Of a stretch of DNA of 13,087 bases, positions 12,493 through 13,087 are shown piece by piece. Under the pieces are notes generated by a model, which ran no database searches, was not told the origin of the DNA, and saw only the letters and a program-made list of their open reading frames with translations. Origin of the DNA: Microcystaceae cyanobacterium (lineage in GTDB: Bacteria; Cyanobacteriota; Cyanobacteriia; Cyanobacteriales; Microcystaceae); NCBI GenBank assembly GCA_041746575.1, contig JBGTGT010000089.1:1-13087 (forward strand). The letters are read 5' to 3'. The stretch's first letter is position 1; every line of letters starts with the position of its first letter. The position numbers and the translations under genes were made by a program.

Positions 12493-12967
12493 TATTATCT
12501 TGTCCGTGGAACATAATCAGTACACAAGACTTTCTGGAGATGAAGTCGACCAAACTATCTTGACTTACTTTGACCCCTCAGAATGGACTGAAAACACAGG
12601 ATATAAAGGATTCACCATCCTTAACTGTGAAGCTCCCAATCTCTCCATAAAAGACTTTGAAACAGTACCAGCCATTTATGAGATGTATTTCAGGCCTCGA
12701 AGAAATTTTAATAAAAATGAAGCTTCTTTAAAAAGTTGCGAACTACAAAAAGCAGCAGTATTTGAGCCTAAAGACCAGCTTTATATCATTTTAGGCATTA
12801 AAAAAGTTAATTACGAAACGAAAGAGAAAGAATTGATAAGAGGAGTTAAATTTTGGGCAATAGATCCCACTGAAAAAATATCAGAATCTAATTTACAAGG
12901 TTACCCCGTGATCGAATCAAGAATTAGTAGCAACTCATCTTTTGACAGTGAACTGTCCCGACGCTGA
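12485..12967 (+). CDS. Putative ssDNA-binding protein with a tandem domain duplication; C-terminus truncated by IS insertion
   Basis: Overlaps the rep stop by 8 nt (ATGCCTAG). Gapless internal repeat at a 97-aa offset. Codons from 12948 onward are IS-derived. SSB function is inferred from position and a beta-rich pattern. Confidence 0.6.
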   Translation: MPSIILSVEHNQYTRLSGDEVDQTILTYFDPSEWTENTGYKGFTILNCEAPNLSIKDFETVPAIYEMYFRPRRNFNKNEASLKSCELQKAAVFEPKDQLYIILGIKKVNYETKEKELIRGVKFWAIDPTEKISESNLQGYPVIESRISSNSSFDSELSRR

Positions 12968-13087
12968 CGCAAACGTACAGCGCGGGCTTCTTACCCAGAG
13001 ACAAGCGCAGTAGTAGATTTCTTTCGTCCTCTATTACTACGACTTACAGTCTGGCGATAAGCTTCTTGATGAAGTTGTTCATGGGGG
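12948..13087 (-). mobile_element. Right end of an IS200/IS605-family (tnpB-type) element
   Basis: Minus strand ...GAAGCCCGCGCTGTACGTTTGCGTCAGCGTCGGGACAGTTCAC|: a subterminal imperfect hairpin (12957-12986) and a terminal TCAC directly after an ORF stop. This is the canonical right-end architecture. Confidence 0.8.
12991..13087 (-). CDS. tnpB: C-terminal tail of a probable TnpB (partial)
   Basis: Open frame ...PHEQLHQEAYRQTVSRSNRGRKKSTTALVSG* ending just before the right-end hairpin. It resembles cyanobacterial TnpB tails as I recall them; RuvC and zinc-finger motifs are not in the window. Confidence 0.55.
   Translation of the reverse strand, partial: PHEQLHQEAYRQTVSRSNRGRKKSTTALVSG

Follow-up and report, generated by a model that had tools for sequence, protein, structure and literature searches.

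Does an insertion sequence whose right end abuts a gene of a surrounding mobile element turn its TnpB nuclease against intact copies of that element? The question is raised by one end of a 13,087-nt stretch of cyanobacterial DNA (hereafter the window), which is the whole of contig C89 of draft assembly G000. The original prediction placed an IS605/TnpB element inside an ssb-like gene of a rolling-circle element, with a guide that would direct cleavage of IS-free copies and so give homing and possibly superinfection immunity. The analysis points to a plainer account, which we consider likely to be correct: an ordinary tnpB-only insertion sequence lies at a deletion junction in a defective inovirus-like prophage, rather than in a clean insertion into ssb, and its guide would serve the retention of the insertion sequence.

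The insertion sequence

The end of the window (12948–13087, minus strand) is the 3′ part of a tnpB-only IS605-family element, inside which the contig breaks. Over 140 nt, C55:17431–17570 and the end of C88 are each 100% identical to these bases; the flanks of the C89, C55 and C88 copies part ways at 12947/12948. The 3′ end of tnpB occupies 12991–13087 (minus strand), with its stop codon at 12993–12991, and is followed by a subterminal hairpin (12957–12986, minus strand) and the terminal TCAC (12948–12951, minus strand). In each of the 29 loci inspected, tnpB is followed by GTTCAC; this count leaves out the frameshifted locus L043. The DNA fold of the hairpin (12986–12957) has an energy of −12.6 kcal/mol (z −1.9), which is equalled by 10 of 200 shuffles and is therefore weak alone; in its helix, two-sided changes are seen in 6 of 12 pairs among 19 relatives. 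This right end, with its hairpin and TCAC on the minus strand, had been placed directly against ssb codon 155, and both the sequence and the identity to C55 and C88 agree with that placement. The contig also starts inside a repeated element, since positions 1–141 of the window are common to the end of C108. A promoter scan returned 4 sites, with 3.3 expected.

The genome contains three copies of this tnpB-only IS605-family element. The complete one (C55:17431–18957, 1,527 nt, or about 1.53 kb) has tnpB as its sole gene, and left ends are also found at the ends of C90 and C91, which have their final 141 nt in common. In run X1, which like X2 may be source data of the assembly, a 654-nt unitig of the element has a depth of 88.4, while its flanks have depths of 31.5, 29.9 and 28.1; a depth about threefold that of the flanks fits three copies sharing this part. 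Of the window copy 140 nt are assembled, and the 654-nt unitig covers its 3′ part. The TnpB encoded on C55 is 424 aa long, matches HTH_OrfB_IS605, OrfB_IS605 and Cas12f1-like_TNB above the Pfam cut-offs and has intact RuvC motifs (D179, E280 and D362) and a zinc finger with two CxxC motifs. The same subterminal hairpin motif is present at all six ends of the element in the genome. The Pfam domains, the RuvC motifs and the hairpins all agree with the predicted IS605/TnpB identity, and the left end and tnpB expected downstream are found, the former on C90 and C91 and the latter intact on C55. Integrity of the RuvC site could be confirmed for the C55 copy, that in the window being assembled for 140 nt only.

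Comparison of 30 loci (the genome's own copy and 29 relatives with 71–83% protein identity) reveals the left-end motif in 20 of them; TTAG is located 11–13 nt ahead of it in 19 of these 20, and in 14 the sequence is TTTAG. The left flank thus carries a short motif without target duplication, as is the rule for IS200/IS605 elements. On C55, the element disrupts a Ser/Thr kinase gene, the frame of which is restored, as judged by eye, only when TTAG is kept at the donor. Another copy is located at the 3′ end of sbcD (L002:12544–13776, C88) and supplies the carboxy-terminus SELSRR*, leaving the IS-bearing sbcD product nearly full length (410 aa vs 407 in orthologues). A Y1 TnpA (PF01797) has 0 matches in G000 compared with matches in 5 of 5 relatives, and a TnpA tblastn search of the assembly gave a best E of 0.17; both results come from an assembly without many repeat bodies, the 69 shared contig ends and the shortest contig of 1511 nt indicating that these were dropped. 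Lacking tnpA in cis, the element is one that we take to be a member of the IS1341 group.

Two 51-nt in-frame palindromic inserts, of 17 aa each, are present in tnpB (C55:17545–17599 and 18040–18094; L001), and the 3′ half of such an insert is found in the window at 13061–13087 (minus strand). The insert does not occur elsewhere in the assembly outside the element. It is also present in the tnpB of 5 of the 29 relatives, two of which resemble a single insertion, and no identification of it was found in the literature covered.

Predicted RNA scaffold and guide sequence

An omega-RNA-like scaffold had been predicted to derive from the tnpB 3′ end together with the right end, and such a structure is conserved, with covariation, among the relatives. 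For the alignment, 10 of the 29 loci were set aside because they have inserts in this region, and the 3′ ends of the other 19 were used. The consensus has three stems and 41 pairs with 97.2% of cells paired, and 21 of the 41 pairs have two-sided changes, a level reached by 0 of 500 shuffles, while slid controls are 33–53% paired; these figures are inflated, given that related, coding sequences were compared and that the structure was drawn from the same 19-sequence alignment. The predicted long stem (12990–13061, minus strand; RNAalifold columns 80–151) shows covariation and is kept in the fold of the genome's own copy. In that fold the 51-nt insert lies in the unpaired linker between two stems and forms a separate hairpin, with the other stems retained (z −3.0), so that the scaffold with its insert is probably usable. 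The flank read through from the right end, 12947→12928, is TGTCAAAAGATGAGTTGCTA, exactly as originally given; this predicted guide (12928–12947, minus strand) is complementary to the ssb sense strand.

The ssb-like gene

The gene next to the insertion sequence is a truncated, tandem OB-fold ssb-like gene (12485–12967, plus strand), assigned by fold and profile comparison. Its 160-aa ORF consists of 154 native codons, a hybrid Ser155 and the IS-encoded ELSRR*, in agreement with the claim that the insertion sequence supplies the last residues. A profile search gave 161 matches, a mix of two-domain proteins of ~200 aa and one-domain proteins of ~100 aa. Two-domain homologues, hand-picked among the 150 matches listed, have 193–232 aa (n = 29), whereas the window protein, with its 154 native codons, covers profile positions 1–154 of 199 and is without ~35–45 residues of the second domain. 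The truncation is therefore real, and the second repeat is indeed cut short. A reading in which the insertion sequence swaps just the last three residues was rejected, because the homologues are 40–70 residues longer than the native part.

The name ssb is a reasonable one, given to the protein on account of its predicted fold. A first model, built from 3 sequences, reached a pLDDT of 36.6. The model of the paralogue encoded on C66 contains two beta-barrel domains (pLDDT 93.8), and its best matches are SSB, RPA and LEF-3 OB folds, with Z up to 7.3 (below 8) and an rmsd of 2.9 for 71 aligned residues. Comparison with the Ff gene V protein gave a TMt of 0.52 and an E of 0.12, Foldseek returned no match for the fold at E <= 0.001, and a protein atlas provided a weak G5P lead (0.83). 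The ssb-like protein itself matches no Pfam or PHROG family, and in the family as a whole (P0002–P0150, two-domain proteins of ~200 aa and one-domain proteins of ~100 aa) there was no Pfam match among 28 members scanned. The two-domain members are probably fused gene V-like dimers.

The host element

A Rep_trans rolling-circle initiator of 313 aa, with its frame open, is encoded at 11551–12492 (plus strand; PF02486, E 3.3e-15) and is 31–44% identical to the Reps of inovirus-like prophages. A 70-aa ORF at 11123–11335 (plus strand) is a probable 5′ piece of a fasciclin gene, assigned by motif only and with no significant BLAST match. On C90, going away from the left end of the insertion sequence, one first meets, on the opposite strand, a truncated gene of the RHH type; a short ORF comes next, then an 81-nt hairpin and a DEDD_Tnp_IS110 gene, past which lies a decayed fasciclin 3′ piece that is 60–70% identical to fasciclins. 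The two fasciclin pieces face each other, which supports, without proving it, the pairing of the window with C90. With its Rep, ssb, RHH and IS110-type transposase genes, the host element can be described as an inovirus-like prophage, now defective, inside a fasciclin pseudogene.

Inoviruses are marked by a pI/Zot-like morphogenesis ATPase and small coat genes. In the remnant, a rolling-circle Rep and a predicted gene V-like ssDNA-binding gene are present; no morphogenesis genes were found between the fasciclin pieces, and the virion and ATPase genes of the C66 prophage have no second match in the assembly. The lengths of the ssb homologues and the loss of the morphogenesis genes together bear out the description of the element as crippled. 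The same RHH, Rep and ssb genes are carried by the related prophages on C66 and in G714, G715, G003 and G009, the first four of which also have small membrane genes and a Zot/pI-like ATPase, the contig of G009 ending earlier. The RHH gene is located upstream of Rep and in the same direction in C66, G714, G715 and G009. In G003:C450 (L086), the orientation of Rep/ssb with respect to RHH/IS110 is like that of the window, with the structural genes still in place between them, so that the inversion may predate the insertion sequence. There, the Rep–ssb–structural block is turned around with respect to RHH/IS110 as well as to the Zot-like gene; this may be an invertible segment or an assembly effect, and no inverted repeats were found around the inverted block in the relatives.

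The prophage on C66 (L017:85–8822) is apparently complete and inovirus-like, with IS110-like, RHH, Rep_trans, two-domain ssb, small membrane protein, Zot/pI-like ATPase and pilin-like genes. Its 81-nt hairpin (L017:1837–1917; z −6.35) is 100% identical to that of C90 (C90:32880–32960), while the proteins are just 25–48% identical; it is possibly an origin, a packaging signal or the product of a recent conversion. The sequence C66:1–141, the 3′ end of the IS110-like gene, recurs at an end of both C120 and C123, which hints at additional copies or at attachment sites. A third IS110-like gene (C26:2048–3691) is 34% identical to that of C66 and has an RHH-like ORF nearby, with no Rep match. Elsewhere in the window, a PsrR1-like sRNA match at 10564–10645 (minus strand) scores 31.3 bits (gathering score 42; E 0.0031) and sits in a stretch with 77–84% identical copies on C8 and C9.

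The two junctions

On the right, the junction falls exactly at TCAC. This speaks for its having been made by TnpA, an enzyme that normally needs its motif. A clean TnpA insertion at a TTAG in ssb, with the left flank replaced later, would bring guide and TAM together and lead to cutting of the dsDNA of IS-free phage copies. Such an event is in keeping with the exact junction, the real truncation and the intact appearance of TnpB and scaffold, and the mechanism has been shown for other elements. Resumption of the ssb frame past the left end had been set in advance as its test. With 14 offsets tried for each of C90 and C91, the frame was not found to resume past either left end, and the ORF stops at 155–166 aa.

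The residues at the junction also argue against a clean insertion. In 5 of 5 prophage relatives they follow the pattern [F/L/I]-D-[T/S/I]-F (TLDSF, KFDIF, TFDTF, KLDSF and SIDSF), and the window reads SSFD and then breaks. The Phe column is F, L or I in 29 of 29 homologues and the residue before Pro is hydrophobic in 28 of 29, whereas a minus-strand TTAG would force Thr and then Lys/Asn at the junction, putting Lys/Asn or Thr into these columns and fitting none of the common spacings. The intact ssb allele is thus quite probably without a TAM beside the guide match, an estimate resting on proteins about 25–41% identical, with extra residues at the junction in a few homologues. An intact phage allele was not recovered in relatives, viral contigs, metagenome matches or Logan contigs. 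A DNA search for the element in relatives gave 0 of 40, ssb and Rep protein scans of viral contigs gave none confirmed, and a word-index protein search had the window protein itself as sole match. In the Logan contigs of 4 runs, no loose end was seen to branch off from the window at 12947; such contigs drop rare alleles, and those of run X5 do not cover the junction. We consider a clean insertion into ssb unlikely.

At the other junction, C90 and C91 share 14 nt plus TTAG just outside the left end. The 14-mer is found twice in the genome, for which the chance is 1.4e-8 per comparison, and the flank has therefore been copied. It seems native to sbcD, where the IS-free reading has 407 aa, as in 2 of 2 orthologues; in G001, a similar stop-plus-downstream sequence is found at sbcD. 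On C90, the RHH regulator is cut at about codon 40, and the 14-mer encodes Tyr-Phe at a place occupied by two polar residues in 6 of 6 relatives. These comparisons make the 14-nt flank in RHH appear to be a copy taken from the sbcD copy of the insertion sequence. The TTAG in RHH falls exactly on a conserved Leu/Ala/Val-Gly step of helix A, which also fits a native insertion. Continuation of the RHH frame into the window minus strand was considered and rejected, as the relatives require Gly at that step.

The guide of the sbcD copy matches window 12933→12918 at 12 of 16 positions after TGAG, 14 nt from the junction, where 0.004 such matches are expected within 30 nt, a figure calculated post hoc. 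This guide was discarded as the trigger of the rearrangement, the predicted cut region being intact in the window.

In the account that we favour, the insertion sequence, with its TTAG (mostly TTTAG) left motif, would have spread recently to three sites, with clean insertions into the Ser/Thr kinase gene (C55) and at the sbcD 3′ end. The window copy would have its right end fused to ssb codon 155 and its left end fused to the RHH regulator via the 14 nt and TTAG matching the sbcD flank, the rest of ssb, the 3′ part of RHH and all virion and morphogenesis genes having been deleted. Such a junction probably arose with the sbcD copy as template, through recombination or microhomology repair, or else through an aberrant TnpA event at the right end, rather than by clean TnpA insertion into ssb.

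The orientation of the insertion sequence bears on the further claim that it exploited rolling-circle ssDNA. Rolling-circle phages such as Ff and CTX displace the gene-sense strand, so that TnpA insertion into this ssDNA predicts the opposite orientation at ssb: the active strand is antisense to rep and ssb, and the claim is not supported at this junction. Its orientation with respect to RHH, on the other hand, agrees with the sense strand. In the host replication fork, the lagging-strand template is a documented insertion site of IS200/IS605 elements (PMC5027513), so phage ssDNA is not required.

A variant of the favoured account, with the same outcome for the guide, starts at the RHH gene: TnpA insertion at the RHH TTAG on the phage sense strand would be followed by a deletion from the right end to ssb codon 155 and by a 14-nt gene conversion from the sbcD copy. 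The TTAG lines up with the step conserved ahead of Gly in helix A, the sense-strand orientation is what insertion into rolling-circle ssDNA predicts, and with the gene orientation of G003:C450, where the structural genes lie between, one deletion would suffice. We nevertheless hold it to be improbable, since it demands two independent target sites so alike that conversion could extend into the flank by 14 nt, and a deletion that ends where there is no cognate motif.

The contigs could also be joined differently, with the window leading to C91 (the hemH-like side, on a contig presumably carrying psaA/psaB-like genes) and sbcD to C90, the prophage having been divided between two loci when IS copies recombined with each other. 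The assembly permits both pairings, as C90 and C91 end in the same 141 nt, and each of the two copies would have one native and one new flank. The fasciclin pieces, of which the 5′ one is assigned by motif only, face correctly only when the window is paired with C90, and ssb fails to resume with C90 or C91, making this arrangement distinctly improbable. A deletion junction between ssb and the RHH gene of C90 remains the account that we prefer.

What the guide could target

Cleavage of dsDNA by TnpB requires a TAM and a guide match (PMC8612924); for one TnpB, high sensitivity to changes in the TAM has been described (bioRxiv 10.1101/2023.03.14.532601). Of the 44,731 TTAG sites in the assembly, 0 have fewer than 2 mismatches over the first 12 guide bases, and a TTAG-plus-guide target is absent from the assembly, the C66 prophage included. 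When the TAM is ignored, the sole 16/16 match is the flank itself; nine other sites match at 14/16 and the related prophages at 12–13. The guide 20-mer has 0 matches in viral contigs and 2 in metagenomes, the latter in unrelated DNA without an adjoining CTAA and so attributed to chance, which further weakens the case for a clean ssb insertion. The expectation that the guide cuts IS-free copies, with homing and superinfection immunity as consequences, is not upheld, as the TAM is probably missing and no target was found in the assembly.

If the window copy at the deletion junction is transcribed, TnpB would load an omega-RNA with an ssb-antisense guide, as the conserved scaffold leads us to expect. 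In dsDNA, a target licensed by a TAM would exist only once a future excision had left behind the chimeric RHH/ssb joint. With the target limited in this way, the likely role of the guide is ordinary retention of the insertion sequence, an activity of TnpB that has been published (bioRxiv 10.1101/2023.03.14.532601), and not homing into intact phage.

The TnpB of ISDra2 is also reported to cut matching ssDNA without a TAM (PMC8612924) and, as the insertion sequence is antisense to ssb, the guide is the complement of the strand expected in the virion. By analogy, the window copy might be a TAM-free, strand-specific guard, installed by recombinational copying from another IS copy, which cuts the ancestral phage's virion DNA on entry as well as the displaced strand of the remnant, keeping the remnant dormant; we consider this very unlikely. 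If true, it would be a natural anti-inovirus defence by a transposon nuclease, a step between TnpB and Cas12 immunity, as shown for plasmids.

It is extremely unlikely that the remnant functions as a satellite of the complete prophage on C66, keeping Rep and the IS110-type gene and borrowing SSB and virion proteins. In its favour, both ORFs are open, the 81-nt hairpin is shared although the proteins are much more divergent, and rolling-circle satellites of inoviruses are described. Against it, in runs X1 and X2 host DNA, Rep and ssb are all part of a single unitig, which is unbranched and of chromosomal depth, no sign of excision or over-replication was seen in contigs, which drop rare forms, the repressor is cut, and conversion explains the shared hairpin equally well. 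The remnant is better described as a decaying prophage with an insertion sequence at a deletion junction.

Relation to known systems

The locus is mostly ordinary, one more IS605/TnpB copy in decaying phage DNA, its only unusual points being the copied 14-nt flank and the strand geometry. Like the ISDra2 and ISGst OMEGA systems (PMC8612924; bioRxiv 10.1101/2023.03.14.532601), the insertion sequence has subterminal hairpins, a left motif kept at the donor, no target duplication and a RuvC TnpB, and its predicted scaffold overlaps the 3′ end of tnpB and takes the flank for its guide. It differs from them in the absence of tnpA in cis, in its TTAG/TTTAG motif and in the two 17-aa palindromic TnpB inserts; moreover, the flanks of the window copy are not contiguous host DNA, so that the donor joint would be chimeric.

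For plasmids, a TnpB gene drive combined with anti-self defence has been shown experimentally to bring an advantage in invasion and defence (bioRxiv 10.1101/2025.02.20.638934), and there, too, an insertion sequence nested in a mobile element gains a guide against the sequence of that element. In our case, by contrast, the host is a defective, integrated remnant of an ssDNA phage, the TAM is probably absent and the system is known from sequence alone. TnpB homing and defence having been shown for plasmids already, they would not be new here even if true.

The filamentous Nf prophages of Neisseria resemble the window element in having a replication initiation factor at one end and an IS110 transposase at the other, with orientation variants (PMC7058167), while the window element differs in its cyanobacterial host, two-domain ssb, RHH regulator and lost morphogenesis genes. 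In the literature covered, with few subscription papers and no supplements, we found no account of TnpB elements inside inovirus prophages or of these cyanobacterial IS110-type inoviruses; the main text of PMC6813254 has no mention of 'IS110' or 'cyanobacteria', and its supplements may cover such phages.

The locus carries a caution for the reading of such sequences: a right-end flank taken as a guide need not have a natural, TAM-bearing target when it lies at a rearranged junction. In turn, the 14-nt flank moved between copies offers a testable clue to the way in which tnpB-only elements may arrive at new sites.
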